Source of the DNA: a candidate division FCPU426 bacterium | GTDB taxonomy: Bacteria; Oederibacteriota; JAJYGY01; DAIDJD01 | Assembly (NCBI GenBank): GCA_031365225.1 | Contig: JANLXT010000059.1 | Span: 1-46,777, forward strand | Direction: 5' to 3' | DNA length: 46,777 nucleotides | Part shown: piece after piece, positions 13,970-33,452 of the stretch | Numbering within the stretch: position 1 is the first letter of the stretch | Layout of the letters: the number at the start of each line of letters is the position of its first letter | The notes under the pieces: generated by a model | Database searches by the model: none | Told to the model about the DNA's origin: nothing | Seen by the model: only the letters and a program-made list of their open reading frames with translations | Made by a program: the position numbers and the translations under genes

Positions 13970-14044
13970 TCCCTGATAGCTCAATGGTGGAGCATTCGAC
14001 TGTTAATCGAAGGGTTCCTGGTTCGAGTCCAGGTCAGGGAGCCA
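13970..14044 (+). tRNA. tRNA-Asn (anticodon GTT)
   Basis: Acceptor TCCCTGA/TCAGGGA plus G-CCA, D-arm GCTC/GAGC, anticodon arm TTCGA-CTGTTAA-TCGAA, T-arm CCTGG-TTCGAGT-CCAGG. Confidence 0.97.
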
Positions 14045-15573
14045 ATCTGTGACAATAGGAGAACTTCGTGCAAACGGGGTTCTCCTTTGTCATTTTTAAG
14101 GGGTAGGGTGTATTCGATCTCGACCTGGGGCAGGCTGACGGTGATGCGTTTGACGAATGAGCGGATCAAGGCTTTGGTCTGAGACAGGCTGCCCTGTGCC
14201 AAGAGTTCTTTTAGCGCCCAGACGCGGTCTCGGATCTGAGTGGCGGTGTATTGCGAAGGGGCATGCTGGTATACCGCTAATTCACGCTGCTTGGGCAGCA
14301 GCGCCTCGATTTCTTCGTTAAGGCCGCTCAGGCGTGGTCTGACTTCGCCAGGTTCCATTTGACTGGTCTCGAGTAGATCCATGAGTTTTGCCTTGCGGTT
14401 GTTTAGGTCCTGCATTTTTCCAGCCAGAGCGTCCTTTTCTTTTTCCCAAGTTGCCATATGTTCTTGATCGCGAATACGCAACAATTCTACGAGCTCTAAC
14501 AGGTTTTCTGGTGTTAGGACGTCCTCTTTCAGGCATTCGAGCACGGCTGTCTCAAATTTCTCTTTGGGCACTGGTAACGACCGGCATGCAGCGCTGCCCT
14601 TGGTCTTGTGGGCGCTGCATCCATAGTACTTATAGGTACCACCCTTGCCGGTGGCGGAAGTCATGGTCGCGCCGCATTCTGCACAACGCACCAATCCTGA
14701 TAAAAGATAAGGGCTTGCAACGCTGCGGGGGCTAAATTCTTTGGGCCTTCGATCGCCGAAGGTGGCCTTGATGGTCCGGTGCTGTTCCAAGCTTATGTAG
14801 GCAGCATGTGTGTCAGGGACCAAAGTGGGCTCGTGCTTGCTCAAGGTCCTGTTGTAGACGGTGTTGCCAGTGTACATAGAATTATTGAGAACACTGTAGA
14901 TGCTGGTCTTGCCCCATAGCTTTCCGCTCGCAGTCAGGAGACGAGCACCATTGAGAATTTTTGCGATCTCCATCCCGCCATGGCCCTGAAAAGAAAGGTC
15001 AAATATTTTTCGAACGGTGGATTCATGGACGGGGTCGATCACTAGCCTGCTGTGCTCCGTTTGGCCCTCTTTTACTTTGATGGCCTTGTACCCAAGCGGG
15101 GCTCTACCACCATAAAAGTAGCCTCGTTGGGCGGCTTCTTTCATCCCGCGCCGGGTGTCTTGAGCCAAATTGTCCGAATAGAACTCATCCATGCTCTCGA
15201 TTATGCCTTCAAGGAGCCTTCCTGACGGCGAGTCCTCGACTTTCTCGTTCAACGAAAAGACCTGAACGCCAGCCTTCCGCAACAATGATTTGTAGACGAT
15301 AGAATCTTCGCGATTCCGCGCAAAACGCGAGAATTTCCAAACGATGATGACATCCACGATCTTGGGCTTCTGCTTTGCCAGCGTGATCATGTTCTTAAAA
15401 TCTGGCCTACGGGTGGTCTTGCCGCTCAAGGCCTCATCGACGAACTCTTGCACGACCTGCCAGCCAGATTTTTCAGCATGTTCACGCATGGCCCTAAGCT
15501 GGCTGGGAATGGACAGGTCTTTTTCAGCCTGCTGATCGGACGAAACTCGGGCATAAAGGACGGCGCGCATCAT
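13981..15573 (-). CDS. Large serine recombinase (integrase)
   Basis: YARVSS catalytic Ser, SRFARN, recombinase domain, YLLSGLVRCAECG..YYGC..C zinc ribbon, coiled coil; 3' end overlaps the tRNA antisense. Confidence 0.93.
   Translation of the reverse strand: MMRAVLYARVSSDQQAEKDLSIPSQLRAMREHAEKSGWQVVQEFVDEALSGKTTRRPDFKNMITLAKQKPKIVDVIIVWKFSRFARNREDSIVYKSLLRKAGVQVFSLNEKVEDSPSGRLLEGIIESMDEFYSDNLAQDTRRGMKEAAQRGYFYGGRAPLGYKAIKVKEGQTEHSRLVIDPVHESTVRKIFDLSFQGHGGMEIAKILNGARLLTASGKLWGKTSIYSVLNNSMYTGNTVYNRTLSKHEPTLVPDTHAAYISLEQHRTIKATFGDRRPKEFSPRSVASPYLLSGLVRCAECGATMTSATGKGGTYKYYGCSAHKTKGSAACRSLPVPKEKFETAVLECLKEDVLTPENLLELVELLRIRDQEHMATWEKEKDALAGKMQDLNNRKAKLMDLLETSQMEPGEVRPRLSGLNEEIEALLPKQRELAVYQHAPSQYTATQIRDRVWALKELLAQGSLSQTKALIRSFVKRITVSLPQVEIEYTLPLKNDKGEPRLHEVLLLSQIGSLTWTRTRNPSINSRMLHH
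14034..14091 (+). repeat. Left att direct repeat (58 bp)
   Basis: TCAGGGAGCCAATCTGTGACAATAGGAGAACTTCGTGCAAACGGGGTTCTCCTTTGTC, identical to 36970-37027. Confidence 0.92.
14051..14097 (+). terminator. Putative tRNA terminator hairpin inside the att repeat
   Basis: GACAA.AGGAGAAC.../...GTTCTCCT.TTGTC stem with GCAA loop, followed by ATTTTT in this copy only. Confidence 0.55.
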
Positions 15574-15983
15574 GGCTTTTTTCTCTTTTTGGGTTTTTCA
15601 GGTTTTCGGTAGGTGCGGGTCTTCAAGTCCCAGCCGTCGATGTTGATCTCGTCAAATGGCTTTTGGGCATATTTGACAACTTTTAAGATGCTCTGGCGCA
15701 TCTCGGGGGTCAGGCGTTGATAGTACTTGAGCAACTCTTCAACCTCTTGCCTTGGCACCATGATTTTGACGCCCAGCTTGTTTTCTTTTTCAAAGAGGTA
15801 ATCGGGGGTCACTCCCAGCACCTCTGCTATCAGGGCCAGTGACTTGGCATTGACCGTTTCCATCTTTCCTTTCTCTAGGCGTGAGATGGTGGCCTGAGTC
15901 AAACCGCAAGAATCCGCCAACACAAATTGGGGCATCTGCAATTGAGTTCGTAGACGTTTGATCACTTCCCCGATCTTCGCCAT
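15570..15983 (-). CDS. XRE-family HTH repressor
   Basis: IKRLR..Q..LA..GLTQATISRLEKG HTH; its stop overlaps the recombinase start (ATGA). Confidence 0.88.
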   Translation of the reverse strand: MAKIGEVIKRLRTQLQMPQFVLADSCGLTQATISRLEKGKMETVNAKSLALIAEVLGVTPDYLFEKENKLGVKIMVPRQEVEELLKYYQRLTPEMRQSILKVVKYAQKPFDEINIDGWDLKTRTYRKPEKPKKRKKP

Positions 15984-16066
15984 TTATCCCCCTGAAGTAT
16001 GGCTTGACATTTATACTCTAATGTATAATTAATACGTTAGCTGTATACATAGATTAGGGGGAAGCC

Positions 16067-16315
16067 GTGCGTAATTCAAGCAGATTCACAAACCGTTTTT
16101 TGGGTGGTTTAGGGCCCATGGCTGTCCAGCCTGCTAGGCGAGCGGCACCCTTTCGCGCCCAAGTGGCCCGCTATTATGCAGCATGTCGGCACGCCCTTCT
16201 TGCGGCGCTGCCTAGAACGCCAGCCCAAGAGACCTTGAGAAAGAGCGGGTTGACTATTTTGGCCGAACTGCTCGCAAAGAGCTTTGAGGCATCGCCACCA
16301 CCCACGGAGAGCTAA
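16067..16315 (+). CDS. Small hypothetical protein divergent from the XRE repressor
   Basis: AGGGGGA SD before GTG; ends 2 nt before the next ATG. Confidence 0.5.
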   Translation: MRNSSRFTNRFLGGLGPMAVQPARRAAPFRAQVARYYAACRHALLAALPRTPAQETLRKSGLTILAELLAKSFEASPPPTES

Positions 16316-16317
16316 TC

Positions 16318-17172
16318 ATGCCTAAAAAGGAAGAACGCAATTGGTATACCAACCCAGAAGATTTTATTGAGCTTCAAGAGAGGGCCGGGCGGGGCGAATT
16401 GGCGGCCATGCGCAAGGTGGCTTTGGAATATGTCACGGGAAGCTGGTATGGGGATCGCCCCGAAAAGGCGCGGGAGCTATACCTTCGCATCGCCGCCCAC
16501 CCTAAGGCGCAGGCCCAGGAGCGTCAGGCGTTGGCTAAAGCTGGATCCGGCGAGCTGAAGGCTATTCTCGATTTGGCCGAAGGGTACATGTTTGGCGCCT
16601 TTCGCGCTCCTGACGTACCCAAGGGAATTGTTTGGTACAAGCGAGCCGTTAAAATGAAGTCCGCAAAAGCGGCTTACGAGCTTTCCAATATCTATTCGGT
16701 CCTCACTCATTTTCCGGACTACTGTAACGGTGAAACGGAATTCAAGTACCTGAAGATCGCGGCCGACCTAGGGCATATTGAAGCGATGGCCGAAGTGGCG
16801 GACAAGCTTCTAAGGCCAGTCGTCCCTTTGCATCGGTTTATGACCGCTATGCGCTACGCCAGCAAGGCCAGCAAGGTAGGCAATCGCCGCGCGATTCAGG
16901 TATTAGGACAAAACCTGATTTACTATAAGGGTCGGTATCAAAAAGACGCCTACCGCTGCGCAGTCAAGTGCGCCAAGTGGGGCGAACCCTGGGCATTTAG
17001 GTACGCATTCTTAGCTTATCGAAATGGATTTGGGGTGCGAAAAAATAAAAAAATGGCCCTTAAATTTCAGCCCAGAGATAAAGAAAAGAGGGAACAACTG
17101 ATTAAACTGGGGATACATGATTCGATTTCACTCAAGCACGATGGGGGTTTGCGAGCCTATATGGGGTTTTAA
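16318..17172 (+). CDS. Sel1-like repeat protein
   Basis: Repeated A..LA..Y..G and WY..A / AA..G..EA helical hairpin patterns. Confidence 0.75.
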   Translation: MPKKEERNWYTNPEDFIELQERAGRGELAAMRKVALEYVTGSWYGDRPEKARELYLRIAAHPKAQAQERQALAKAGSGELKAILDLAEGYMFGAFRAPDVPKGIVWYKRAVKMKSAKAAYELSNIYSVLTHFPDYCNGETEFKYLKIAADLGHIEAMAEVADKLLRPVVPLHRFMTAMRYASKASKVGNRRAIQVLGQNLIYYKGRYQKDAYRCAVKCAKWGEPWAFRYAFLAYRNGFGVRKNKKMALKFQPRDKEKREQLIKLGIHDSISLKHDGGLRAYMGF

Positions 17173-17221
17173 TCATAAATGGGCCATTTTATTCAGTCGA
17201 AATACGAATAAACCCACGATT

Positions 17222-17263
17222 TGAATAGAGCCTAGGCAGCGCTATCTACCTAGGCTCTATTCA
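17222..17263. terminator. Hairpin between convergent genes
   Basis: 15-bp perfect inverted repeat TGAATAGAGCCTAGG...CCTAGGCTCTATTCA. Confidence 0.65.
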
Positions 17264-17278
17264 TTGGCCTCAAAAGTT

Positions 17279-17818
17279 TTATTTTGAATTGGATTTTTTC
17301 CAGGCATTCACAAATTCTAGGACCATCGCCCTGACTTGAGCACGGACGTCGCTAGAGTCAATTTTTCGATTTAGTACACCAACTGTTCCCACGGCCCCCT
17401 TTTTCTTAGTCATCCACGTGATTCCCAAAGTCTTGATCGAGGGATCGCGATCAAGGGTTGCCCCCTGAAACAACATCGCGCTTGCATCTATATTTGCGGA
17501 TCCCTTGTCGCCCATTGTTAACACAGCGATGACAACGAACTGAGTGGGCGCAGTGGCCTTGTCGAGCTCGGCAAGGGTAAGGATCTTAAATCCTTCATCA
17601 CGGAGCTTACCCTCAATATCCGAATGCTTGATATCGTCCTGTAGCTGATCATAAGAGCTCTTAAATTGGTTGATGACCTGAACCCTTACACCCAACTCGG
17701 ATAGGTTCTTTAGGGACAAGATAGCAGGATCTGCTTTGGCATTGTCGGCTTTTGCTGTTACGGCCATGCTGAGGATGATGGCTAAAATTGCGATGAATGT
17801 TGGAATCTTGCGCTGCAT
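17279..17818 (-). CDS. Hypothetical exported protein
   Basis: AGGAGGGAG SD, signal peptide ending AKA, 179-aa alpha/beta body. Confidence 0.75.
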   Translation of the reverse strand: MQRKIPTFIAILAIILSMAVTAKADNAKADPAILSLKNLSELGVRVQVINQFKSSYDQLQDDIKHSDIEGKLRDEGFKILTLAELDKATAPTQFVVIAVLTMGDKGSANIDASAMLFQGATLDRDPSIKTLGITWMTKKKGAVGTVGVLNRKIDSSDVRAQVRAMVLEFVNAWKKSNSK

Positions 17819-17881
17819 GCTCCCTCCTGATTGATTGTTTGGGCTCGTGGCCCCATTTTTGTCTGACCCTTAGTGAAAGAT

Positions 17882-17920
17882 GACTATAGTCCGAAAGACT
17901 ATTGTCCGTCGACTATTGTC
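17882..17920 (+). promoter_or_regulatory. Three C-box-like operator repeats
   Basis: GACTATAGTC (17882), GACTATTGTC (17897), GACTATTGTC (17911) upstream of an XRE gene. Confidence 0.7.
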
Positions 17921-17958
17921 TTCGCCAAAACTACCCTCTTTAAACAGGAGGGAAGCCA

Positions 17959-18195
17959 GTGCAGCCAGAAAAAGCGTTCGGCCTTGTGTTAGCTGAAACA
18001 CGCAAGAAAAGAGGCGTTTCTCAAGAAGAGCTCGCAGAGATCGCGGGACTGGACCGCACTTTTATCTCGTTGCTTGAGCGAGGCAAGCGTCAGCCGTCCT
18101 TGACCAGCATGCTGACTTTGGCAAAAGCTTTGAATATCAAACCAGATAAGTTGTTGTTAGCAGTGACTAAGCTCTTGGACAAGCGCGCGGCTTGA
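17959..18195 (+). CDS. XRE HTH protein resembling restriction-modification controller (C) proteins
   Basis: FG..L...R...G.SQE.LA..AGLDRTFISLLERGKRQPSL; AGGAGG SD before GTG. Confidence 0.88.
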   Translation: MQPEKAFGLVLAETRKKRGVSQEELAEIAGLDRTFISLLERGKRQPSLTSMLTLAKALNIKPDKLLLAVTKLLDKRAA

Positions 18196-18362
18196 TCTGT
18201 CGGGGAAACTATTTTGAATTTGCGGGATAAAATCTGTCTCACAATTGCTCGTGTGCCACATCGCGGTCCTTTCCCATTGACTTAAAGTTTCGTACCACAA
18301 AACTTGTTTTCTTAAAGTCTTTGTAATTATGTTGCTCAATTTATCTCTATGTGCGCTAATCA

Positions 18363-21300
18363 TTGCCAAGTCAAATTTGCCACGGGGACTCAGTGAAATT
18401 AATTTCGAAAACGCATTTATGGCATCAAACAATTAGATCGATTGCTACTTTGGTGCGTGATGCCGTTTGTCCAATTATTAATACGTCAAAATGCTTCTTG
18501 CTCGGCATCTTTCTTCTAAGCTCCTCCGCCCACGCCATCGATTGGCCTTTTTTCAAAGCTGATGCTGCACGTAGTGGGACCACGACGGACACCGTCCTTG
18601 GCCCTGGCCTTGAGCTCAAGTGGATGGGCAAGGCAGGCGATGCTGGCATCGTCAGTTATTCGTCCCCGATTGTTGCGGGCGACCAGGCCTTTATCTCCCA
18701 TAGCAATGGCCTCGTGACCGCGTTTGACCTTAGCCCCAACTTTGCGGTTCAAAGCGACGGCAGTGCTTTGCCCACGTTCTATGCACCCACCAAAAGTGCG
18801 GCCAAGGCCTGGCAATTCAGGACCAATGGATCGGTGTATTCGAGCCCGGCGTTTGCGGTGTCAAATTTTGTACGGCGAGTTTTTGTCGGGACAACGTCGG
18901 GTACGGTCTATGCGCTTAAAGCCAATGCGGTGGATCCGCAGGGCGAACAGCTTTGGCGAGCAGACCTAGGCGGCGCTTTCTTTGCCTCGCCCATCGTTGC
19001 GGATGTGACAGGTGTTGGTCCAACGCTCTTTGTGGCGGCAGTCACGGGGGATGTCTATGCGCTCAACGCAATTGATGGCAGCGTGCGTTGGAAGATCGCC
19101 ATGCCAGGTCAAGTGCTTGCCTCGCCGGTGTTTGACACGCCCAAGCAGCGGCTCTATCTCGTCGACATGCGTGGCAACATCAGGGCGTTTGTAGCGAGCA
19201 CTGGTGGGGTGTTATGGAACCGTGGTTCACAAAATAGCTTTCATGCAACTCCTGCTCTACAAGGGGATGTTCTCTATGTTGTTGGCAGAAATGGCATTGT
19301 TCGCTCGATTGATGCTAGCGCCCTCATTTATCCCGCAGAACGAAATATCTTCAGCACCCTCACGCTACCCACAGGGATAGTCTCTTCGCCAGCAATCACA
19401 AGCTATTTAGGCAAGCCTCGATTGCTGGTCCTAACCCATGACGGCACACTTCGAGCCATTGACGCCAATGTTGGCGGCGGTGGTTTGACTGCGGCTTGGA
19501 CATTGGCCCCTAAAATTGTAGACGCAGGCGGAACCGCGAGTGTGAGTATCGCTGGTACTCGAGCCTATGTGGGCACGCAAGATGGTACCTTGCGCATGAT
19601 CGATGTCGCTGATGGAGCGGTACGCTTTGAGCAAAAATTAGCAGGCGGTGCCGAGATCGCGCCTGCAGTGGCGCAAAGCAGTTTGCTTGTGGCAAGCAAC
19701 GATGGCGCATTGCGGGCCTATGGCATGCCGATCAGTAGCATCCGGGTCTCTGGTCAATCAACGGTAGCGGCAGGGTTGTCTAATTCTTATGTCTTCGAAG
19801 CCCTCGACGCAGCAGGCAATGTGGTCCCAACAGCGGCGGGCCCCGCGTCGGTTACGACGAGCCTTTTGCCGGGCCAGAATCAGTTGCAAGTCGTGTCCAC
19901 GGGCCCGCTCAACGCAGGCCGGGGAACGATGACACTTGTGCGTAGCCCTGGCAACTATTTGGTCAAGGTCAGTGTGGTGGTTGCGGGCAAGACGTACATA
20001 GGGGCTTTGACGGTGCTCTTTGTTGGCGCGAGCCCAACACCTACGCCTTCGCCATCGATAACGCCTAGCGATACCCTGACGCCAACGGCCACCGCGACTG
20101 CGACTGAGTCGGTGACGCCAACGCTCACTCAAACGAGCACCTTCACGACCACCGAGACGGTGTCCGCTACTTACACCAGCACGCCGACTGCAACCTCGAC
20201 GTCCGTGCCCACGCCCGGGACTGATAACGGTTTTACTTATTATTGGTTCATCAAAGTTCAGAATCGGACCGGACTGACCTATGACAACACCACGGTTCAG
20301 CTTTCGGATGGAACGGGATTCGTGGATTTAGCTTCGCGCATCGCCGATAACAAAATCGAGAGCGATGGCAGTGACATACGTATTGTGGATGACCAAGGGG
20401 TGCAGGTACCGTTTGATTTGGTCAACGACCCCAACCACACAAATGCGATCTTGCGATTTAAGGTCAGCCATCTGGATCCAAGCCAAGAAAAAATCTATCG
20501 CATGGATTTTGGAAAACCCGGGGTCGGTTTCCCCGCAGGATATGGGACCACCGCTTATCTCGAGCAAGTCTATGGTATCGCCGATAGCTTTGAGGGAACC
20601 GCGATTGAAGGGGCTAAGTGGACCGTGAATTCTGGTGCACCGGTAGTCGGGGGCGGCCAACTGTCCGTCGATTTGCCCTTTGACATTCAGACGCTGGCGA
20701 CGCTGGACACTTCGTATGGTGGCCGCTATGAATTCACCGGCAATGGCGGAAATAGTGAACCGTATTTGGGTGGTCAATTTAATTGGCAGATGTTGCAAGA
20801 CAGCTCCCATTACGTAAGGGGGTATAGAAACCGTCTTTCGGGCATTGGCTTTGAAGTGAGCAACCTTGTTAATCAGATGCTCCCGGCGCAACCGCCAACA
20901 CCCTTTGGCGGCATTGTCAAATGGGCGGTTATCAGCAATGGCGGGCGTTATGGTGTCACTAAGGATGATGGGGCCAATGATTTCTATTGGGGCGTCTTTG
21001 TCAACCGGCCAAATCCTTTAGTCATCGGCCAGACTAAATTCAGCGCTTTCGGTACATTAGATGCCGGTGTCTCGGCAACAGCAATATTCCAAAAAATAGT
21101 AGCTTATGCGGTTCGTGATAACGGGCCGACCGCCACGTTGTTGGGCGACCACCCCGTTATTTTTGATGGTCCAGTGACCAATGATCCGGTGCCTGAGACA
21201 CATTGGAATCAAGCTTCGCACGAAGAGAAGCTTCCACTTGTACAGGTACCAACCAATCAGGTGGTCCTCAAAGGGTTCCCGCGTCCAAGTGATCTGCTTG

Positions 21301-22403
21301 TGTCGCAGGGTTCGCTGTGGGTTGTGGATCAGCAAAATGCGCATGTGCGGCGCTTTGACCGACTTTCGTTGAATCCAACAGGGGTCTTTAGCCAAAATCT
21401 AGTCGCGCCCGAAGCGTTGGCGTGGGATGCGCTGCATCAATGGATCTGGATCGCTGATCCTGGTGCGCATCGCGTTGTGGCAATGGACCTAGATGGTAGT
21501 TTAGTGCGAACGATTAGCCAGCGTGGTAGCGAACCTCTGATTTTGCCTAGTGGAGTGGCAGTGGATACCAATGGGTTGGTTTATGTGGTTGATCGCCAGG
21601 CCGCGACCTTGTCCTGCTATCACGCGGACGGCTCTTATTATTGGTCGCGTGGCGCTCTCGGTTATGAAGCCAATCGCTTTGCCAGCCCGTCACGAGTCGC
21701 TGTGGGCAAGAACGGTATGGTGCATGTCAGTGACCCAGGTAATCAGCGTGTGGCTAGCTGGGATAAAAATGGCTATCCCATCCGTCAGTTGCCGCGTCTA
21801 TCAGCGATGGCTTTCAATGTGGACACGCCAGTCGGCTTGGCGGTTGATGCCAAAGAACGCCTTTGGTTTGTCGACGCGGCTAAGGGCCGGTTGGTCTGCA
21901 ATGATGCTAACGGCCAGCTTTTAGGCGTTGGTGTTGAGCACGCATTCACTGAGCCTGCAGGTATTTTTGTTGAAGAGGATGGCACAACGTGGGTCGCGGA
22001 TCGCGGCAAGGGCGAGGTGGTTGGCTTTAGGGATGGCCAAGCACCCACCAATCCCTCGGCTGGTGACGTGGTAGCTTCGTCACGGCGAGATTCAAAAGAG
22101 TTGACACCAGCCAAGCATTGGTTGCCACAGGAAGTAAAATTCTTGGTCGCTCCTAACCCTGCCAAACGCGATGTGGTGATCGGGATTCGATTGGCGCAAA
22201 GCGCCAAGGTCACAGTGTTCGTCTCAAATATCGCAGGCGAGACCCCCTATTCCATCGATCTGGGCACTTTGCCAGCGGGGGAGAGCGTGGTCCAAGCACT
22301 CTTGCCCAATCTTGCGTCAGGAATTTATCTGCTGTCTGCCCAAGTTGAGGGCCCCTATGGTCCCAAGATCTTGGCGACTCAAAAAGTGGCGGTGCTGCGA
22401 TGA
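18363..22403 (+). CDS. Large secreted protein: PQQ-like beta-propeller, Thr/Pro linker, DUF2341-like, NHL repeats, T9SS-CTD-like tail
   Basis: AHA/IDWPFF..RSG after a signal peptide; SSP and YAL..G..W repeats; DGSDIRIVD; P.GVAVD..G.VYV.D repeats; APNP..LASGIY..KVAVLR; true start probably downstream of 18363. Confidence 0.85.
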   Translation: MPSQICHGDSVKLISKTHLWHQTIRSIATLVRDAVCPIINTSKCFLLGIFLLSSSAHAIDWPFFKADAARSGTTTDTVLGPGLELKWMGKAGDAGIVSYSSPIVAGDQAFISHSNGLVTAFDLSPNFAVQSDGSALPTFYAPTKSAAKAWQFRTNGSVYSSPAFAVSNFVRRVFVGTTSGTVYALKANAVDPQGEQLWRADLGGAFFASPIVADVTGVGPTLFVAAVTGDVYALNAIDGSVRWKIAMPGQVLASPVFDTPKQRLYLVDMRGNIRAFVASTGGVLWNRGSQNSFHATPALQGDVLYVVGRNGIVRSIDASALIYPAERNIFSTLTLPTGIVSSPAITSYLGKPRLLVLTHDGTLRAIDANVGGGGLTAAWTLAPKIVDAGGTASVSIAGTRAYVGTQDGTLRMIDVADGAVRFEQKLAGGAEIAPAVAQSSLLVASNDGALRAYGMPISSIRVSGQSTVAAGLSNSYVFEALDAAGNVVPTAAGPASVTTSLLPGQNQLQVVSTGPLNAGRGTMTLVRSPGNYLVKVSVVVAGKTYIGALTVLFVGASPTPTPSPSITPSDTLTPTATATATESVTPTLTQTSTFTTTETVSATYTSTPTATSTSVPTPGTDNGFTYYWFIKVQNRTGLTYDNTTVQLSDGTGFVDLASRIADNKIESDGSDIRIVDDQGVQVPFDLVNDPNHTNAILRFKVSHLDPSQEKIYRMDFGKPGVGFPAGYGTTAYLEQVYGIADSFEGTAIEGAKWTVNSGAPVVGGGQLSVDLPFDIQTLATLDTSYGGRYEFTGNGGNSEPYLGGQFNWQMLQDSSHYVRGYRNRLSGIGFEVSNLVNQMLPAQPPTPFGGIVKWAVISNGGRYGVTKDDGANDFYWGVFVNRPNPLVIGQTKFSAFGTLDAGVSATAIFQKIVAYAVRDNGPTATLLGDHPVIFDGPVTNDPVPETHWNQASHEEKLPLVQVPTNQVVLKGFPRPSDLLVSQGSLWVVDQQNAHVRRFDRLSLNPTGVFSQNLVAPEALAWDALHQWIWIADPGAHRVVAMDLDGSLVRTISQRGSEPLILPSGVAVDTNGLVYVVDRQAATLSCYHADGSYYWSRGALGYEANRFASPSRVAVGKNGMVHVSDPGNQRVASWDKNGYPIRQLPRLSAMAFNVDTPVGLAVDAKERLWFVDAAKGRLVCNDANGQLLGVGVEHAFTEPAGIFVEEDGTTWVADRGKGEVVGFRDGQAPTNPSAGDVVASSRRDSKELTPAKHWLPQEVKFLVAPNPAKRDVVIGIRLAQSAKVTVFVSNIAGETPYSIDLGTLPAGESVVQALLPNLASGIYLLSAQVEGPYGPKILATQKVAVLR
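20031..20222 (+). repeat. Low-complexity Thr/Pro/Ser linker-coding region
   Basis: Translates SPTPTPSPSITPSDTLTPTATATATES...TPGT. Confidence 0.8.
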
Positions 22404-23167
22404 GGTTGAAACGCTTTTACTTCCTCACTGTGGTGTTTGCTTGCGCACCAAGATTAGTTTGGGCAGGCGCACCTATACCCTCTGACACAAGCGGTCCAGT
22501 TTTGCAATGGCGAGTGGGCCAGGCGGTAAACTACCGAATGACAATTAAGGCACCCGGATTTGAAGATCAAGTTCGCAATACCAGATACGCTATTGTAAAA
22601 AAAGAAGATTCAGGCCAATTTTGGTTTGAAGTCAGTCAAACTAATCTCGCCGGGTCAAATATTCTGACAATTTCACGACTTGTCACGCCCACGACTGAAA
22701 CGACACTTCTAGGATCATTGATTTTCGATGGGATAGAATCTTTTGCAGCAAGTCGTGTTTTACAAAAAATTGGGAATCAAAACCCGGCGGAGCTTGCCCC
22801 TGAAATGTTTCCGCAAGGGAAAACAGCTAGCGGGATCAATGGCCTATACCAATCATTTGCAACTACCGGCAACGGATTGGTCACGACGGCAGCAGGGGCT
22901 TTTCAAGTGGTGACAATGACGGCGACATTTCATCAAAGTGCACAACCAAGTCAGCCCCCACGGAACCCTAACGCCATCGTATTAGTTCTAAGTCAGGGCG
23001 TGCCTGTTCGAGGTATTGTTCGTTACAGCTTTCCGCTCCCGCCTGATTTTTCTAGCAACGTCACAAGAACTGTCATGGTAGAAATAGATTCTATTGAGTA
23101 TTCGGCCAGTACGCGTATTTCTGGTACGCCTAGTCGCCTTCTTCCTTTTACAACACCGTCACGATGA
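22400..23167 (+). CDS. Hypothetical exported protein
   Basis: ATGA overlap with the upstream gene; signal peptide; beta-rich; V.TAAGAF motif. Confidence 0.7.
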   Translation: MRLKRFYFLTVVFACAPRLVWAGAPIPSDTSGPVLQWRVGQAVNYRMTIKAPGFEDQVRNTRYAIVKKEDSGQFWFEVSQTNLAGSNILTISRLVTPTTETTLLGSLIFDGIESFAASRVLQKIGNQNPAELAPEMFPQGKTASGINGLYQSFATTGNGLVTTAAGAFQVVTMTATFHQSAQPSQPPRNPNAIVLVLSQGVPVRGIVRYSFPLPPDFSSNVTRTVMVEIDSIEYSASTRISGTPSRLLPFTTPSR

Positions 23168-23228
23168 AGTTGCTGTACGTATTAGAATGTGTCGCGCTAT
23201 CTACGATGGCAAATCAAATGGTGCATCG

Positions 23229-26200
23229 ATGATTTTTTTAAAATTTTGCAAGAACATTCAAATTTTGAGAGAAACGAGCTATCTCGAATCCAGACTTCTG
23301 TCTTTTCTTTTATTTCTTTCACTAAACGTGCAACTTGGTCACGCACTTGCAGCTTCAGACCCATGCCCAAATGGTTGCGGTGGCGTCATTATAAGCGGTG
23401 GTGGTGGGGGTAGCGGGGGACCCACGGGTCAGCCAGCTAAGCCGGGACCGACACCCAAAACGAAAACCGATCCTCGGCTAGCGCCCTCAAAGCAACCGTG
23501 TTCTGGAGATCCAGTATCAACTGCGGACGGTACTAACTATTTCTCGGTTTCAGATTTTGACTACGCACGCGTGGCTCCGAGTTTCCCTTTGCGCTTTAGG
23601 CGTTTCTACCAAAATGGATTTTCAAGTGTTGCGGGAGAGCTTGGCGAAGGTTGGACTCATGATTATTCGACTGCATTCATTTTTGATGAAGAAAAAAATG
23701 AATATATTATGTTAGGCTCAGAAACTGGTGGTAAATTTTATGTTGATTTGACAAGCGCAGACCCCAGTTATTTGAAAGCACAGGAGGGACTATTCGCTTC
23801 GGCACGCCTTTTGCCTGCTGGAGAGATTGTAAATGGACAATGTCGTACGAACTCAAGCCCGCCAAGTTTATATACATGCAATTATGGAGAAGACTTCGTC
23901 CGAAACCTACTCTCGACACTTAACTATAACTTACCCGCCGAAATAGCTGGTTTGCTAGAAAGAGAATCCTATTACGGCGGATTGATATATACCGACAAAT
24001 TTGGAAAGGTGACATATTTTATTGCGTTAGCTCCAGGAGCGCCAAACGTCTTTGTGCCAGTATTGGAGGTCGATCGGTGGGGCAATCGCTTAAGCTATGA
24101 ATATGAATCGTACATAAGGCATCCTGGTTTTAGCTCATATTCAACCGCTTGCAATGGGGAATTTTGTGTTCCCCATATTGGTGGGAGCAATGCAATATTC
24201 GATTTACGCTTGCAACAAGTGAGTTCCTTTCCCAAGGGCAGAGATGTTGCCGATTGGCAGATTCAGTTTGAATACAAAGTGTCAAACTCGGTTCGGGATG
24301 ATCGCTATGGCTACAAGATTACGGCTGTTACAAATAGCCTTGGCGAGCGAATAGGGTTTAGTTATCTTTATAGTGAACAATTGAGTCAATATGGCCCTGA
24401 AATAATATTTGATAGTCGACCTATTATTTCTGCAATCAGGTCGGATGGCACATCAGCTAGCTACAGCTACTTTAGCCAAGATGAGCCTCTATTAGTCGCA
24501 AAAAAAGACTCGAAGGCAGAGCCGAGCGGAAGGAATTTTTCCTATGCCGTTGAGTCTTTTAGTGGAGTGGCACGGGGCACAACAAACGTAATAGATGGAA
24601 ACGGAAATTTGACAACTGAGATTGGTTTGCCATGGTCAAGTATCATTTCGAAATCTTACCCCTATGACGTTGTTACAAAAGACCATCTCGGACGCACGAC
24701 GCGCATTGATACCTATGGTTTGCAAAACCAATTACCCTATTCTGGTAACATAATTCCCATAGATGCCCCTCTTTGCCTTTCGAGCCACATTTTTTTGACA
24801 TCGGCAAATTCGTTTATCAGACGCTATGGTTATAACCAAGATGGGCTTTTGGTTGAGGAGCTCAACGATTACACCGGAATCGCCTTGCTGATGTCCTATG
24901 ACGCAAAAGGCAACTTGATCGCCCGTCAAAATACGTTCAATCAAGGTGTTGGCATCCCCGCGGAGTCTTGGACCTACGACCCGTTGAGTCGGCCATTGAG
25001 CTACGTCGATAAAAATGGTCGAACAACCTCCTATGTCTATGGGGATGGACTTAATCTTACCGAGATAAATCGCCCCCTGGGGTGGAAGAACACTTTTTTA
25101 TATGACCCCTTTGGCAAACTCATCGAGTCGATAGACGCCAATGGGCATAGAACAAAGGTTAGCTATGACGCGGCTGGCCATCTTCAGCGTTCTCAAGGTC
25201 CCGATCTTTCTATCCCGGCGACCCAGTATATCTTTGACCCCAAGGGTCGGCTCGAGTCTCAGACAGATGCTTTGGGCGCAACTATTCGTAATACTTGGAC
25301 AATCGACGGGCTCTTGGCGAGCGCCACGCTGGCAGACGGCAGTAGTGTCGTTTTTACTTACGACGCTATGCGTAATTTGATTAATAGCAAGGATGCGAAC
25401 GGGACTATCACACAGAATTTTTATGATAATTCAAATAACCTTATTCAAGTAGATTCTGCCAGCAACCGCCCGGACGCAATCAGCCAGCACTTTGAATATG
25501 ACCCTCAGAGGAACTGTACAGCTGTCATTGATGGTGCTGGCAAGAGGACAAGTTTCACCTTCAACTTGCAGGGCCTGCTTGCGAGTAGCAGTGATCCCTT
25601 GGGTAAGGGGGGAGACCTTCGTTACGATTCCAACTTAAAGCCCATCAGAAAAACGGATACCCGCGGCGTAGTCAGGACGTACACCTATTTCGGAAACGGC
25701 CGATTGAAGAAAATTAGTTTCTCGGGGGCCCCACTATCCAATCCGGCACAGCCTGTCGAGTTTACCTATGACGGAAACGGCAATCGCATTTCCATGACGG
25801 ATGGAATGGGAACGAAAACATATTCCCGCGATCTGCTTGATAGGCTGACGCACATTCACGATGCCGCGAGAAATTTTGATATTAACTACACGTTTGACTT
25901 GGTCGGCAATCGTACTGCGATGAACTATGTGATCCAAGGAAGCCTCATCGATAGCTTTGCCTACAATTTTGACGTGAGTGATCGCATGATTACAGTCACC
26001 GAGACGCGGACCGGCATGCCCTCTGAGGTTTCCGATTTCACCTATAACGCCATCAATCAAATTAGCAAGGTGCGCTATCCTAACGGAGTAGCTGAAGCTC
26101 GATATACGTATCACCCGGACAACCATCGCCTGATTGGGCAAACCAACGTCAATGAACGTGGAAGCGCACTCTCGCAATTTGACTATAGCTATGATTCTGC

Positions 26201-27497
26201 AGGGAATATCAAGACTGCCAAAGACCTTGCGGGTTTGAATATCTATAGCCTTGATTCAAAAAATCAACTTTTGGACTCCGCAACCTCAGCTGCGACAAAT
26301 AACCAAAGTTTCACCTACGATGAAGCCGGCAACCGCGTATCGTTGATCGAGTCATCGGGCAATACCTCTTACACCATCAACCAAGGCAACGAGGCTGTTG
26401 CGGTGGGTGGGCAAACAGTCACTTATGATCGGGCTGGGAATATGTTCTCGAAGAGCGGAGGGGCTGGAAGTCAGTATGGATGGGATAGCCTAAATCGTTT
26501 AGTGAAAGTAGAGAGCATCATCCCTATCCAGACCATTGCCACGTTCCAGTACGATGGCGATGGGATCCGGAGCAAAAAAGTCAATGGCGCAGGAAGTGCG
26601 ACAAATTATTTCTTCGATGGATTGCAGGTTTTGGCGGAGACAGATGCGAGCGGGATAATCAAAAAGACCTACAATCCTGGCATCTCGACCACGGATGATA
26701 AAGGCAACAAGTTTTACACGCTCGTCAACGGGCATGGGGATGTTGCGAACCTGATCGACCGTGACGGCAATATCGTGGATACCTATAGCTACGATGCCTT
26801 TGGTAAGACTATCGGGGTGGCGAAAAATTCAAACGGATTTAGATATGTGGGGCAATACGGGGTGCACAGTGACGACGACCTAGGCTTACAGTACATGTGG
26901 AATCGTTGGTATGACTCTGAGTTAGGGAGATTTATCAGCCGTGACCCTATCGGAATGGCTGGGGGATTGAACCTTTACGTATACACAGGAAATAATCCCG
27001 TGACTTATGTGGATTCGCTAGGATTGTGTGCCGATCCCAATGGTCCCGATCCTGGGTTTAACGGTCATAGTCATTGGGAGGGCTTGTTAATCGTTAGTGA
27101 CTCAAATAGCTCCGGAGACTCGGGTGGAGGCAGTGTCTTAGGCATTATTAGCTCGATTGTATCTTCGCCAGGAAATCCAAATGTACGACTTGGAATGATA
27201 CCATTTGGATTCGGGAGCCTTGGTGGCGTGGGTTTTTTTAGATCCTCAATACCTAAGTTGCCATTTAATAATAAAGTATTTGGGCAACTAATGAAGTGGG
27301 GTTCGAATAGTGCGACAGCAAGGGCTCAAATAGGAAATCTCTCTGCGGAAGTTTTGAGAAAAGCCGGGATGACTAGTAATATGGCAGAGGAATGGGCTGC
27401 ATTTTACAGAAACGAGTCACTTTTGGTACCGAGAAATCCTTCTGCGGCAGGTCGTGCAGAGTTACTGGAGGACGTAGCAAAAATGCTGCGCCAATAA
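23229..27497 (+). CDS. RHS/YD-repeat polymorphic toxin with DUF6531-like N-domain
   Basis: GDPV..ADG..RRFY..LGEGWTHDY (DUF6531-like), many YD repeats, core RWYDSELGRFISRDPIG..NLYVYTGNNPVTYVDSLGL, then a variable C-terminus; start taken as the ATG at 23229. Confidence 0.92.
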   Translation: MIFLKFCKNIQILRETSYLESRLLSFLLFLSLNVQLGHALAASDPCPNGCGGVIISGGGGGSGGPTGQPAKPGPTPKTKTDPRLAPSKQPCSGDPVSTADGTNYFSVSDFDYARVAPSFPLRFRRFYQNGFSSVAGELGEGWTHDYSTAFIFDEEKNEYIMLGSETGGKFYVDLTSADPSYLKAQEGLFASARLLPAGEIVNGQCRTNSSPPSLYTCNYGEDFVRNLLSTLNYNLPAEIAGLLERESYYGGLIYTDKFGKVTYFIALAPGAPNVFVPVLEVDRWGNRLSYEYESYIRHPGFSSYSTACNGEFCVPHIGGSNAIFDLRLQQVSSFPKGRDVADWQIQFEYKVSNSVRDDRYGYKITAVTNSLGERIGFSYLYSEQLSQYGPEIIFDSRPIISAIRSDGTSASYSYFSQDEPLLVAKKDSKAEPSGRNFSYAVESFSGVARGTTNVIDGNGNLTTEIGLPWSSIISKSYPYDVVTKDHLGRTTRIDTYGLQNQLPYSGNIIPIDAPLCLSSHIFLTSANSFIRRYGYNQDGLLVEELNDYTGIALLMSYDAKGNLIARQNTFNQGVGIPAESWTYDPLSRPLSYVDKNGRTTSYVYGDGLNLTEINRPLGWKNTFLYDPFGKLIESIDANGHRTKVSYDAAGHLQRSQGPDLSIPATQYIFDPKGRLESQTDALGATIRNTWTIDGLLASATLADGSSVVFTYDAMRNLINSKDANGTITQNFYDNSNNLIQVDSASNRPDAISQHFEYDPQRNCTAVIDGAGKRTSFTFNLQGLLASSSDPLGKGGDLRYDSNLKPIRKTDTRGVVRTYTYFGNGRLKKISFSGAPLSNPAQPVEFTYDGNGNRISMTDGMGTKTYSRDLLDRLTHIHDAARNFDINYTFDLVGNRTAMNYVIQGSLIDSFAYNFDVSDRMITVTETRTGMPSEVSDFTYNAINQISKVRYPNGVAEARYTYHPDNHRLIGQTNVNERGSALSQFDYSYDSAGNIKTAKDLAGLNIYSLDSKNQLLDSATSAATNNQSFTYDEAGNRVSLIESSGNTSYTINQGNEAVAVGGQTVTYDRAGNMFSKSGGAGSQYGWDSLNRLVKVESIIPIQTIATFQYDGDGIRSKKVNGAGSATNYFFDGLQVLAETDASGIIKKTYNPGISTTDDKGNKFYTLVNGHGDVANLIDRDGNIVDTYSYDAFGKTIGVAKNSNGFRYVGQYGVHSDDDLGLQYMWNRWYDSELGRFISRDPIGMAGGLNLYVYTGNNPVTYVDSLGLCADPNGPDPGFNGHSHWEGLLIVSDSNSSGDSGGGSVLGIISSIVSSPGNPNVRLGMIPFGFGSLGGVGFFRSSIPKLPFNNKVFGQLMKWGSNSATARAQIGNLSAEVLRKAGMTSNMAEEWAAFYRNESLLVPRNPSAAGRAELLEDVAKMLRQ

Positions 27498-27498
27498 A

Positions 27499-27729
27499 AT
27501 GAAAAACAGTCGCATAGACATTCAAAATTGCGGAACCAGCGAATTGATTTTGTTCATTGAGCCATGGGGAATAGATTACGCAGTGAAGCCAAAGGAATCA
27601 ATTGAAATTCTTTTTATTGGAGCAGAAGAGGGTACCGTGATGGTTGAGCATTTTCCTTCGAGAATAGTAGTATATGGATGGGCAGAAACTAACCTTGAAG
27701 TTCGACAAAATGGGGTACTTCTAAATTGA
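27499..27729 (+). CDS. Putative immunity protein of the RHS toxin
   Basis: 76-aa ORF starting 1 nt after the toxin stop; EPWG motif. Confidence 0.7.
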   Translation: MKNSRIDIQNCGTSELILFIEPWGIDYAVKPKESIEILFIGAEEGTVMVEHFPSRIVVYGWAETNLEVRQNGVLLN

Positions 27730-27820
27730 CCACTTTTGCAACGGATGTAAATCGCCAGCAACCCTTGGAGACTTCACCCATTTTTGATAGTCACGGGTGA
27801 GGCTTTTTCGGACGGCCGTA

Positions 27821-29193
27821 GGTTATGCAACATTTTTTGGTGTAAATTCCACCAGGGCGTAGAGCTGGCAAGTGCGGCCTAGAGGGCCGCGCTCATGTGT
27901 TTGGCGCCGTGAATGCGTTTGGTTTCCCAACGGCGCTGATGTTCGATGGAGATGGACCAGACTAGCTTCCAGACCTCTCCCTCAGCTTGCATGGCACCAG
28001 CGGGCCTCAGCCGCCGGCGCAGTTCGCGGTTAAATCGTTCGATTAAGTTGCTCGATCGTAGAGTGCTCCAGATGGCCTTGTCTTCGTTCATAAAGGTCAA
28101 GAAGCGCTCAGGATCGGCGCAGGTTAGCTCGACAGCCTTGGGATAGAACCTCTTCCAGCGACTTTGTAGCTGACCAAGAGCGATGTACGCCGACTCACGA
28201 TTCGGTGCCCAGAATATCTTTTTAAAATCCGCCATAAATTCTTTTTGGTCTTTGCCGGCAATTCGAACTCGAACGTTGTGCATCTTGTGAACAATACAAA
28301 GTTGGTGAGGCACGGCCAGCAGCTTCGAAACTGCAGCTCCGATGGCTTTGTGGTCGTCTGAGATGGCGAGCTTGATCTTTGAGGTGTCGAGTCCACGCGC
28401 TTTTAATTCTTTGATGAACGCCGACCACGAATCCTCAGACTCTCGATCACCGAGCAAAAAACCCAAGACGTGGCGTTTGCCATCAGGCGTGATGCCAATC
28501 GCCGCCAATATGGCCTGTTTGGCAGTGAACTTAGAGACCCGAACAGGTAAGTAGAGGGCATCTAAGAACAGATAGGCGATCTCGTCGGTGATAGGTCTGC
28601 CAAGCCAAGCCAGCGCTTCGGGAATGAGCTTGTTCGTGAGCACAGAGACGTCAGCGGATCGAAGCTTGGTACCAAAGGCAGAGTTGAGCTCTTGAGCCAC
28701 CGCTCTTGTGGATGTACCGCGTAGCCAGAAACGTGTCGCAAGAATACCAGCTAGATTCTTGCCAGTGCGCTTCAAGCTCTCTAAAAAGGGTGACGGTGGG
28801 TTTGCTCCGCGTAGCACTGGACGACGGAGCGTGACCGAGCTAAAGATGCCTTTAAGCCTAAAGGGCTTGTAGCCATTGCGGGACAGGGACGCGGTATCGC
28901 TGCGTTCGTGAAAATCCCGTCCCAACAGGTCAGTCTGCTCCGATAAAAGACTCCGATTTAAAGAGTCTGCCAAGGCCGCATGCATCTCAGATTCGACCAG
29001 GGCCATGACTAGACCAGGATCAAGCTCTTGTTGGATCTTGGCACGGATAAATTTACGAGTTTGCTGAGCCAGGTTTTGTGATACGCTTTTCATGGGCGTA
29101 GATCTCCGTAAAAGGGGACTGGGGTTGTGGTAAACACCAGACTACGCCCTTTTCTATTTAAACGGAACTTACACCTAGTTTTGTAGCACAACC
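27821..29193 (-). mobile_element. IS256-family insertion sequence
   Basis: Imperfect 30-bp terminal IRs (GGTTATGCAACATTTTTTGGTGTAAATTCC vs reverse complement of 29164-29193, 22/30 matches) around a transposase; no target duplication seen. Confidence 0.85.
27879..29093 (-). CDS. IS256 (mutator-type) DDE transposase
   Basis: YLFLDA, ISDD, QLCIVH, SNLIERFNRELRRR motifs. Confidence 0.92.
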   Translation of the reverse strand: MKSVSQNLAQQTRKFIRAKIQQELDPGLVMALVESEMHAALADSLNRSLLSEQTDLLGRDFHERSDTASLSRNGYKPFRLKGIFSSVTLRRPVLRGANPPSPFLESLKRTGKNLAGILATRFWLRGTSTRAVAQELNSAFGTKLRSADVSVLTNKLIPEALAWLGRPITDEIAYLFLDALYLPVRVSKFTAKQAILAAIGITPDGKRHVLGFLLGDRESEDSWSAFIKELKARGLDTSKIKLAISDDHKAIGAAVSKLLAVPHQLCIVHKMHNVRVRIAGKDQKEFMADFKKIFWAPNRESAYIALGQLQSRWKRFYPKAVELTCADPERFLTFMNEDKAIWSTLRSSNLIERFNRELRRRLRPAGAMQAEGEVWKLVWSISIEHQRRWETKRIHGAKHMSAAL

Positions 29194-29952
29194 TTGCAAG
29201 GCAAGATGGTCACGTTGGTGTTTGAGGGATTGATCCCAGTAGGGAAGGGTTATCTGGAACGAATCGGTTTTTTTGATGCCGACAAGCTGCATCCTTCCAT
29301 TGAGGTCTTACCCTATCGGTTTCGAGGGATGTCTTCGGCTATTCTTCATGACGGTCAGAGCGACAACCTGGTCGAGATACAACCTATCCGACTGGCTGAT
29401 TCCGACTGTATTGAATTTCAACCCATACCGAGTCGAATCGGTGATCGCGTACAAAAGGCCTATGATGGGCATGAACAGCAGGGGAGCGTGACTAGTTCGT
29501 GTTTCACATTGGTCGCGGAGCTTGGACAAAACATCATCCATCACAGTAATTCTGTGACGGATGGGTATGCCTCGTATCAACGGTTCCCAGCAAAAAATAC
29601 ATTTAAAGTTGCCGTCTCCGACTGCGGGGATGGAATCCTCGCCACGATCCGCCCGGCACTGGTTGAACAACGGCACAAGGATTTGTCGGACAGCAAACTG
29701 CTTCTCGAGATGCTCAATAGCGGGAAGCTGTCCCGTCTTAATGACGGTGGAGGCTCCGGACTATATTCATGTGCTAAAAATGCCTTGGCTTTTAAGGCGC
29801 AGATGTGGCTCCGGCTTCCGACCTGCAGTGCTTTCCTTCGGCCGGTCGGCCGAGCTGGCCAGCAATATGGCTTGGTCGACTTCGATGAAGGGGTCCCCTT
29901 TTTCCCGGGCACCCATGTTTCCTTCAGATACATCTTGACGCCGGCGACTTAA
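29194..29952 (+). pseudogene. Anti-sigma-type (GHKL/HATPase) kinase, probably 5'-truncated by IS256
   Basis: Frame is open from the IS end; N-box ELGQNIIHHS, G1 DCGDGI, G2 GGSGL; partial STAS-like N-part (GYLERIGFFD); could still be translated from the ATG at 29206. Confidence 0.7.
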
Positions 29953-29971
29953 TCTGCTTTACTTCATATCA

Positions 29972-30520
29972 ATGAAGCAGACGCCTACGATACAATTAAG
30001 ATCCTGCATGGACTCTGAGGTAGGGCTTAGCCGTCCAATGGGGGCCAAGTGTTACAAGCGCCTCAAGGCTGAAGTAGAGGCCAGAGGGGACGAAGACCTG
30101 TTCCGTGTATCGTTGCAAGGCGTGAAACAGACAGATACGTCCTTTCCAAAGCATGGCTTGCTGGCCTTGGCCAAGGAACTTAGAGGCAAGAAGGCGTTTT
30201 GTTTAGCTGATGCTTTCGATCAGGAGTTTCTAGAAAACTGGGGAGACGCGGCTGATGTAGCAGAGTTCCCCTTGATCGCCTGGGGTGCAAAGAGCTACAA
30301 GCTCCTAGGGCCAAAACCGGGTGGTGGTCTTGCTGAAGTGTTCGAGTTCGTGATGGGGCGAGAGGCAACTGGCGCCGCCGACCTAAAGCAAAAGTTCGGG
30401 TTCCAAGTTCCAAATGCGAGCAACAAGCTGAAAAAGCTCTTTGATCAGGGGTACGTGTGGAGACGTGTTCGCGTAGCAGGGTCCGGAGGCATAGAGCATG
30501 ACTACTTGGCCATAAAATGA
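29972..30520 (+). CDS. STAS-like + winged-HTH DNA-binding protein
   Basis: SLQGVKQTDTSF (STAS phospho-Ser-like motif, Ser57); C-terminal ADL..FG..VPNASNKLKKLFDQGYVWR wHTH. Confidence 0.75.
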   Translation: MKQTPTIQLRSCMDSEVGLSRPMGAKCYKRLKAEVEARGDEDLFRVSLQGVKQTDTSFPKHGLLALAKELRGKKAFCLADAFDQEFLENWGDAADVAEFPLIAWGAKSYKLLGPKPGGGLAEVFEFVMGREATGAADLKQKFGFQVPNASNKLKKLFDQGYVWRRVRVAGSGGIEHDYLAIK

Positions 30521-30613
30521 TTTTTTTTGGATACACCTTCATACGACTAGTGTGAAGCAGAACTGAGTAGAAGGGGATTTCCCCTAAACTAACATACGAA
30601 AGAAAAGGCAAGG

Positions 30614-31534: not shown

Positions 31535-32007
31535 GTACCGTCGCCAGTCGCACGTTCCGGAGCAGCCCGCAGCGGGATGCGTTGCAAACTTGGACTGCGA
31601 TAGTTGAATTACTAACGCAGGGCAAGTCTAGCGTTGCTCGAACTGAATTGCTGGCGATTGGCGGAATAGCAGCAACATTAATCGCCGATCGAACCCCAAA
31701 AGATGAGGCGATAGTCGTTATTTGTGACGGTCCACGCACTCGGCTCTATTGTCTATATGACGATGAAGCTATTGAGGGATCTGATGCCAGCGAAGATGCG
31801 CTGGGTTTTGATCCTTTGAAAGGGGACTGGAACGTCTCCCTGCCTTGTGCAGCGGCCGATGTCAAATGGGTGCAAGCCGCACTCAAGAAGCATAGCAGAC
31901 GCATTGTTGCGCGTGAGAGCGGAGCGGATGTAAAGACGGCGGAAAGCAAGAACGTGTCGAAGGCTGAAGACCTCATTTTTGATCCGAAAGGGTTCCTCAA
32001 ATCATGA
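31531..32007 (+). CDS. cap8: CBASS HORMA3 protein
   Basis: [39 protein letters not shown], recognised as close to Pseudomonas HORMA3. Confidence 0.88.
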
Positions 32008-33403: not shown

Positions 33404-33452
33404 CGCCTGTGCGGAAAGGTGCCTTTGATAGCAGTACTTCTAAAGGCAGAGT

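Follow-up and report, generated by a model that had tools for sequence, protein, structure and literature searches.

A recombinase gene that ends inside a tRNA gene

The DNA analyzed here, referred to as the window, is a stretch of 46,777 nt (contig JANLXT010000059.1) from a candidate division FCPU426 bacterium. It carries a putative genomic island that lies between two copies of a 58-bp repeat, the first of which begins in the 3' end of a tRNA-Asn gene. A gene for a large serine recombinase (LSR) sits at this edge of the island and runs antisense into the tRNA. We refer to the repeat-bearing ends as the left and right attachment (att) sites, attL and attR, and to the site formed by joining the island ends as attP. 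The following features define the locus.

13970..14044, + strand: tRNA-Asn(GTT), 75 nt with encoded CCA (ARAGORN); the B arm of attL
13981..15573, - strand: LSR gene, 530 amino acids (aa) in the integrated state (list of open reading frames, ORFs)
14034..14091, no strand: attL copy of the exact 58-bp repeat (repeat search, sequence read)
36970..37027, no strand: attR copy of the exact 58-bp repeat (repeat search, sequence read, own-genome search with 100% identity)
36914..36969, - strand: P arm, encoding an 18-aa tail and the stop codon for the recombinase in its excised state; AGAAC is present at the attP-type distance (scripted join and translation)
14092..36969, no strand: island body of about 22.9 kb; G+C is mostly 45-54%, vs 55-65% in the flanks (composition profile; Pfam on 19 ORFs)

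The tRNA-Asn(GTT) is the only tRNA that ARAGORN finds in the window. Searching the 2.82-Mb genome bin for a second full copy of this gene returned none, and the only strong copy was the one described here. The sole long ORF across the tRNA is the recombinase gene at 13981-15573 (-), whose product has the C-terminus ...SQIGSLTWTRTRNPSINSRMLHH; 64 nt at its 3' end overlap the tRNA gene in antisense. The repeat search returned a direct repeat at 14034-14100 and 36970-37036 in which identity is complete over the first 58 nt, and one other repeat family (23 nt, 83% identity) in the 27 kb searched. The 58-bp repeat is made up of the final 11 nt of tRNA-Asn and the next 47 nt, and those 47 nt encode recombinase residues 495-510. 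Residues 495-513 are encoded within the repeat and residues 514-530 (17 aa) by the antisense strand of the tRNA. The initial annotation had described a recombinase frame that crosses the whole repeat and takes its last 17 codons from the reverse strand of the tRNA, and the ORF list and repeat search bear out both points.

We joined the island ends by script. The recombinase frame stayed open across the junction and gave ...SQIGSL followed by KGTDGRTFQIAFQFSCRS and a stop codon. The joined-end tail is 18 codons plus stop (coordinates 36970-36914), for a recombinase of 531 aa in the excised form and 530 aa in the integrated form. The initial annotation had obtained the same open frame and 18-aa tail at 36970-36914, and it had proposed that the integrated and excised states encode different C-termini; at the level of sequence, this is correct for the last 17-18 residues. 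An open frame of such length on joining two ends is unremarkable by itself. However, the same arrangement recurs in relatives with a fixed motif spacing (see below), and thus it is a built-in feature rather than an accident of this window.

Pfam identified an N-terminal catalytic domain (Resolvase, PF00239, residues 4-151, E 6e-36) followed by Recombinase (PF07508, residues 183-270, E 4.7e-14) and Zn_ribbon_recom (PF13408, residues 290-346, E 2.7e-15), and these three domains mark the protein as an LSR. R9, S11, and Q15 are invariant in an alignment of 31 sequences (A1, described below), as are C297, C300, C319, and C330; the nucleophilic serine and the four zinc-ribbon cysteines are kept. Toward the C-terminus, V504 and L505 are invariant and E503 and G511 are conserved in at least 90% of the rows. 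A search of the Protein Data Bank (PDB) matched the catalytic domain of TP901-1 integrase at 2.9e-15, and SPbeta SprA (9dxh) aligned with residues 139-483 only. The AlphaFold2 (AF2) prediction, with a predicted template-modeling score (pTM) of 0.42, places long helices, as might form a coiled coil, at residues 355-402 and 408-434 after the zinc ribbon. The last predicted strand spans residues 500-506, with a predicted local distance difference test score (pLDDT) of about 70. The pLDDT is below 50 at residues 509-518 and 526-530.

Relatives and the anatomy of the attachment sites

We collected relatives of the recombinase by protein and genome searches. A protein search returned 2120 matches, and alignment A1 combines the query with 30 sequences hand-picked from the 120 listed (top matches and long contigs). 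These relatives are 40-53% identical to the window protein. Comparing C-termini had been suggested in the initial annotation as a way to see which tail is conserved. Read by eye, the alignment has an R-T pair in the same tail column in 27 of 31 rows, and the pattern continues to the last residues. The shared tail comes from the tRNA read in antisense. The R-T codons, CGA-ACC, are the reverse strand of the T-loop GGTTCG, and a V/I-N-S motif holds the antisense of the GTT anticodon. For annotation, this means that the C-terminal residues of such recombinases in databases are mostly antisense tRNA and that their "conserved tail" is an artefact of tRNA conservation.

A genome scan with the alignment, taking one genome per species, identified 78 loci from many phyla; a scan with the single protein gave none. 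Scanning viral contigs added 13 loci at 40% identity or more, with L114 (a truncated match) and L115-L180 (lower or partial matches) excluded, for a set of 91 loci. About 45 of the Dehalococcoidia loci that were found are 35-42% identical to the window protein. ARAGORN detected an antisense tRNA at the recombinase 3' end in 37 of the 91 loci, always in the same frame and with 11 tRNA identities (Asn 10, Ile 6, Val 5, Ala 4, Ser 3, Met 2, Glu 2, Lys 2, His 1, Asp 1, and Gln 1). Transfer-messenger RNA (tmRNA) was considered as the target of the loci that lack a tRNA and was ruled out, since none lies beside any of the 78 genome loci (ARAGORN -m). Collections of phages and plasmids yielded no close family member, the best matches being about 31-35% identical over part of the protein, and these collections therefore offered no naturally excised copy for comparison. 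Some relatives occur as convergent LSR pairs that lie tail to tail and have one att core in common (L038, L040, L045, L047, L048, L056, L069, and L082). These pairs account for 8 of the 21 attP-type or tRNA-less loci tested, and each gene extends into the reverse strand of the codons that end the other.

The relatives also indicate where strands are exchanged. In nearly all tRNA-adjacent loci, the sequence GTTCT, which encodes V-L of a conserved E-V-L, begins 20 nt ahead of the antisense CCA. Because GTTCT keeps this distance from the 3' ends of many tRNAs in many phyla, the motif must belong to the element, and the crossover must then fall between GTTCT and the T-arm. The same fixed distance rules out a crossover at the center of a hairpin in this region or at the far end of the repeat.

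Around the 91 gene ends, we counted the strict pattern GTTC-Nn-GAAC with n from 20 to 60. Two spacings stood out. N36 was found in 36 loci, 26 of which have an ARAGORN tRNA; the other 10 carry tRNA-like fragments, as judged by tail sequence. N42 was found in 9 loci, none with a tRNA. Any other spacing occurred in at most 3 loci each. In the 46.8-kb window, GTTC-N36..42-GAAC has two matches only, attL (N36) and attR (N42), and the attP obtained by joining the ends is also N42. The sites can be placed as follows.

14021..14064, no strand: attL-type site GTTC-N36-GAAC (pattern search); its motifs are the tRNA T-loop and the antisense of the V504-L505 codons
36951..37000, no strand: attP-type site GTTC-N42-GAAC at attR (pattern search), made of P arm 36951-36969 and repeat
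14039..14040, no strand: inferred central (crossover) dinucleotide GA (+), the midpoint of GTTC-N42-GAAC; its partner is 36975-36976

The dinucleotide corresponds to recombinase codon S512 and to tRNA positions 71-72. In serine integrases, the motif bound by the zinc ribbon has been described as lying 5 bp closer to the center in attB, the bacterial site, than in attP (PMC3783163). The same outer motif is likewise found here at two distances from the center, N42 and N36, and the apparent 6-bp shift fits the 5-bp rule. The joined attP of the window shares the spacing GTTC-N42-GAAC with the attP-type junctions of relatives, which supports its assignment as an attP. Motif searches located the far island ends of two relatives, L034 and L028. 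The cores common to both ends are 7 nt and 13 nt, both contain the inferred midpoint, and both P arms have AGAAC at the attP distance. In the 10-kb flanks of relatives, a search for direct repeats of at least 12 nt gave spurious matches only, and when the whole genomes were searched for L034 and L028, no further copy of at least 18 nt was present on the same contig.

These data establish how the locus is laid out, that the arrangement recurs across the family, and that the motifs have two spacings. An attP within the recombinase gene and a C-terminus that depends on the state of the element are both well supported. We propose that, in this family, the 3' end of the recombinase gene contains attP. 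The inner (P') half-site would comprise codons about 503-511, in which the conserved E-V-L codons spell GAAGTTCT, and strands would be exchanged in codon S512, or tRNA positions 71-72. The outer half-site of the integrated element would be the tRNA T-arm, whose T-loop GAAC lies 6 bp closer to the center, as in an attB-type half-site. That of the excised element would be the far end of the island, with GAAC at the attP-type distance. The zinc-ribbon domain probably reads the T-loop motif, and the island is presumably still mobile. A crossover in S512 means that the residues after 513 are encoded by whichever arm is joined, giving 17 antisense-tRNA residues when integrated and 18 P-arm residues when excised. 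We consider it very probable that a 22.9-kb integrative island, bounded by the 58-bp repeats, was inserted by its own LSR at the 3' terminus of the only tRNA-Asn gene, and that the exchange of tails is a by-product of the position of the site.

Meaning of the exchanged tail

Several observations weigh against this interpretation. A 58-bp identity is atypical for the recombinase family and for LSRs, and a simple attP x attB reaction leaves unexplained a 47-nt copy in the host flank of attR, described below. The two GTTC-N36..42-GAAC matches in the window are not above chance (4.58 expected), and it is their positions alone that are telling. Neither an excised circle nor an empty site was seen, the sole run covering the locus, probably the source sample, being Logan k=31 contigs that end 30 nt into the repeat. 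Two features of the excised-type tails also hint at coding constraint: each of the 9 N42 loci has a tail of at least 15 aa, and in three pairs of related attP-type junctions without a convergent gene, the differences by codon position were 8, 3, and 18, such that 18 of 29 fall at third positions.

Because the contigs break at the 58-bp repeat, the four junction types are indistinguishable in them, and the repeat depth of 18.1 vs 6.9-7.9 in the flanks (Logan contigs) is uninformative. A second run contained a 227-nt piece of the left flank gene only, plus tRNAs of other organisms. An empty site was not found in relatives, where 30 of 40 match the tRNA only, and the TrkA-like/dehydrogenase synteny was not found within 1.5 kb of tRNA-Asn in 7 loci. 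No match came from a metagenome scan for the left flank protein or from a scan for a 30-nt string of the P arm.

The attR site is unusual. Its host flank is an exact copy (100%) of 47 nt of the recombinase tail-coding arm (14045-14091) and stops at the end of the hairpin stem. With 47 nt of the P' arm copied into the host flank, attR is a complete attP-type site that has no recombinase gene behind it. Two readings fit this arrangement: the copy may be the remnant of a second tandem copy of the element, or the island may have inserted into an attL remnant.

We asked whether the exchange of tails could be a functional isoform switch, as the initial annotation had inferred. The excised tail would then belong to the active integrase, and integration would swap in a tRNA-derived filler together with an antisense mRNA that runs through a busy tRNA gene. 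The consequence would be lower activity or a lower level of the enzyme, which would stabilize the integrated state or bias the direction of recombination without a separate factor. Precedent exists in Mx8, where integration is described as giving the gene a new 3' end and the enzyme altered properties (PMC6070905), and the same possibility was raised for DsiB by McMurdie et al. (PMC3146451). If the tail did tune activity, this would be a mode of directionality control distinct from the known route through a recombination directionality factor (RDF). We nonetheless regard the isoform switch as unlikely, for reasons that come from the tails themselves.

The integrated-type tails of relatives are highly variable. 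Among the 33 measurable N36 loci, the tail past the crossover codon ranges from 1 to 364 aa (median 16) and is at most 4 aa long in 8. In the window protein, the swapped part lies past the last predicted strand, at pLDDT below 50. From the sequences and the structural model, the integrated tail looks like filler. The attP-type tails differ in that all 9 have at least 15 aa, which favors a role for the excised form.

Sequence features of the excised-form tails also favor such a role at first sight. Five of these tails (the window, L034, L028, L059, and L063) have in common R-T-F followed by alternating hydrophobic residues, and this set combines three members of the window's subfamily with two Dehalococcoidia. 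However, the R-T-F codons, AGAACTTC, are the in-frame reverse complement of the E-V-L codons, GAAGTTCT. R-T-F thus mirrors E-V-L in a palindromic site, and the symmetry of the DNA bound by the enzyme is sufficient to account for it. Beyond R-T-F, the tails (15-55 aa) cannot be aligned between subfamilies. The L059 protein, a natural attP-type relative, gave a poor model from a 17-row alignment (mean pLDDT 64.9, with the tail below 50).

The pattern of substitutions is similarly equivocal. Across all pairs of related attP-type junctions, the differences at codon positions 1, 2, and 3 numbered 51, 67, and 125, and the third-position bias persists in the three pairs noted above (18 of 29). This bias is what a selected tail would show, but the third positions of the tail frame are also the third positions of an antisense integrase-like frame, and in 8 of 21 attP-type loci a convergent second recombinase gene has its 3' end in the P arm. 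The evidence for selection on the excised-state tail is therefore suggestive but ambiguous, and a function for this tail is possible.

A related proposal links the tail to the odd attR as a switch that needs no additional factor. The excised gene would end in its own short tail. The integrated gene would reach its stop codon only head-on through the sole tRNA-Asn gene, so little or no complete enzyme would be made. The flanks would be one attL-type and one complete attP-type site, and insertion and excision would be the same reaction (attP x attL giving attL + attP). A single reaction of this kind could likewise account for the tandem arrays of relatives and for their convergent recombinase genes. 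We think the switch improbable.

We find it very unlikely that the island is a fixed remnant, in which the repeat would be the scar of an old tandem array or rearrangement and the two isoforms would never both be made. In favor of a remnant, attR has 47 nt of the P' arm and no gene behind it, as would be left by deletion of a second copy, the island contains an IS256-family transposase, and no alternative junction was seen in the Logan contigs stopping in the repeat or in the scan with the 30-nt P-arm string, but the recombinase ORF is intact with all conserved residues present, the repeat copies are 100% identical over 58 nt, and the P arm retains the family motif at the exact distance. Insertion of a mobile island by its own LSR, with the tail exchanged as a by-product, is the interpretation we carry into the comparisons below.

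Island contents and comparison with known systems

Two further features adjoin or overlap the recombinase gene.

15570..15983, - strand: HTH_3 (XRE-type) gene; 4-nt overlap with the recombinase start (ORF list, Pfam)
14057..14096, + strand: terminator-like hairpin and T-rich tract directly 3' of tRNA-Asn (terminator scan; minimum free energy, MFE, -28.2 kcal/mol, z -8.3)

The HTH_3 gene is probably co-transcribed with the recombinase and is a candidate regulator or directionality factor. Only 7 of 84 usable relative loci have a homolog of this gene upstream of the recombinase. The Pfam scan of the 19 island ORFs found no second recombinase. The hairpin has a 13-bp stem, is the antisense of recombinase codons about 494-508, and has a T-run that corresponds to lysine codons of a protein linker. 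From its position, the element seems to supply the terminator of tRNA-Asn. A comparably strong hairpin was present in 7 of 31 tRNA-adjacent relative loci, and the attR copy of the hairpin lacks the T-run.

The island carries several accessory modules. A type III operon of the cyclic oligonucleotide-based antiphage signaling system (CBASS) at 30614-34967 encodes a TRIP13-like AAA ATPase, a 158-aa ORF, a bacterial HORMA_2 protein, a SMODS cyclase, and a 504-aa effector with a SAVED domain. An RHS toxin region at 23094-27729 encodes an RHS-repeat protein of 1467 aa, which has DUF4951 at its C-terminal tip, and next to it a 76-aa ORF follows that is a possible immunity gene; a PQQ/NHL beta-propeller protein of 1346 aa is encoded upstream of the RHS gene at 18363-22403. 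The IS256/Mutator-family transposase gene (27879-29093, - strand) lies between the RHS and CBASS modules. Relatives of the host contain a second, partial 3' copy of tRNA-Asn. One has the full gene at G019:C4 466500-466574 and a 45-nt copy at 498509-498553, 32 kb apart; another has them at G007:C62 16991-17059 and 16787-16823 (37 nt), about 170 nt apart. These partial copies suggest that other elements have used the same tRNA.

Serine integrases are valued as genome-engineering tools because of their short sites and well-understood one-way reaction. To our knowledge, known serine integrases use protein-coding targets. Our literature search for serine integrases that target tRNA genes found no printed case except the ssrA islands discussed below. 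The family described here is a large, phylum-spanning LSR branch that probably uses the universal T-arm and acceptor end of tRNAs as its bacterial half-site and carries its own attP in its last codons. Recognition of tRNA sequence would explain how one type of enzyme can colonize many tRNA genes, and the family supplies ready attP/attB pairs.

Genes that span an attachment site and whose products change upon integration are known among tyrosine integrases and the phages that use them. In SSV1-type elements, the gene for the tyrosine integrase spans attP and is split in two by integration. In integration-dependent phage immunity, the gene spanning attP codes for a repressor that loses a degradation tag, and the integrase is again a tyrosine recombinase. 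The window shares with both a gene spanning attP whose product is changed by integration, and the analogy with att-split integrases drawn in the initial annotation is apt. Mx8 Int is also a tyrosine recombinase, and a much larger C-terminal part of it is replaced. The Mx8 attP lies inside int, and integration is described as giving rise to a recombinant gene whose 3' end is new (IntP/IntX; Tojo 1996 and Magrini 1999, as cited in PMC6070905). The altered protein is still made and behaves differently, according to the same source. The window resembles Mx8 in having attP inside the integrase ORF and a C-terminus that is changed by integration. It differs in that its enzyme is a serine recombinase (by Pfam), and functional consequences have been shown for Mx8 only.

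Compared to the canonical LSRs LI/A118, phiC31, Bxb1, and SPbeta SprA, the recombinase has the same order of domains, a pseudo-palindromic attP of about 50 bp, and a shorter spacing for the bacterial half-site, as these are described in PMC3783163. Typical relatives also have a short identity core, as canonical LSRs do. Unlike those enzymes, the recombinase has its attP within its own gene, targets a tRNA, and has a half-site offset of 6 bp instead of 5.

The closest parallel in layout is provided by the ssrA islands of Dehalococcoides and their recombinase DsiB. McMurdie et al. (2011) doubted that the antisense part of this gene has a function and raised the possibility that full function is reached only in the circular form (PMC3146451). 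Both the layout and the speculation about a swapped tail were thus published for DsiB in 2011, and the isoform idea is not new. As described in that paper, the DsiB islands share with ours a serine recombinase of roughly 540 aa at the island edge, whose 3' end overlaps attL and whose stop codon lies outside the island. Tandem arrays and a target in the tRNA-like 3' end of a stable RNA gene are further points of likeness. The likeness of the window recombinase to DsiB is one of layout as described. Unlike the DsiB islands as described there, the target here is tRNA-Asn instead of ssrA (tmRNA), and the repeat is 58 bp. Pfam also found none of the domains of the six-gene module described for those islands (a DsiA-like small serine recombinase and RecF-like, ParB, Mom, and primase-like proteins) in the 19 island ORFs. 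The window is a further case of this described layout, with a tRNA rather than a tmRNA as its target.

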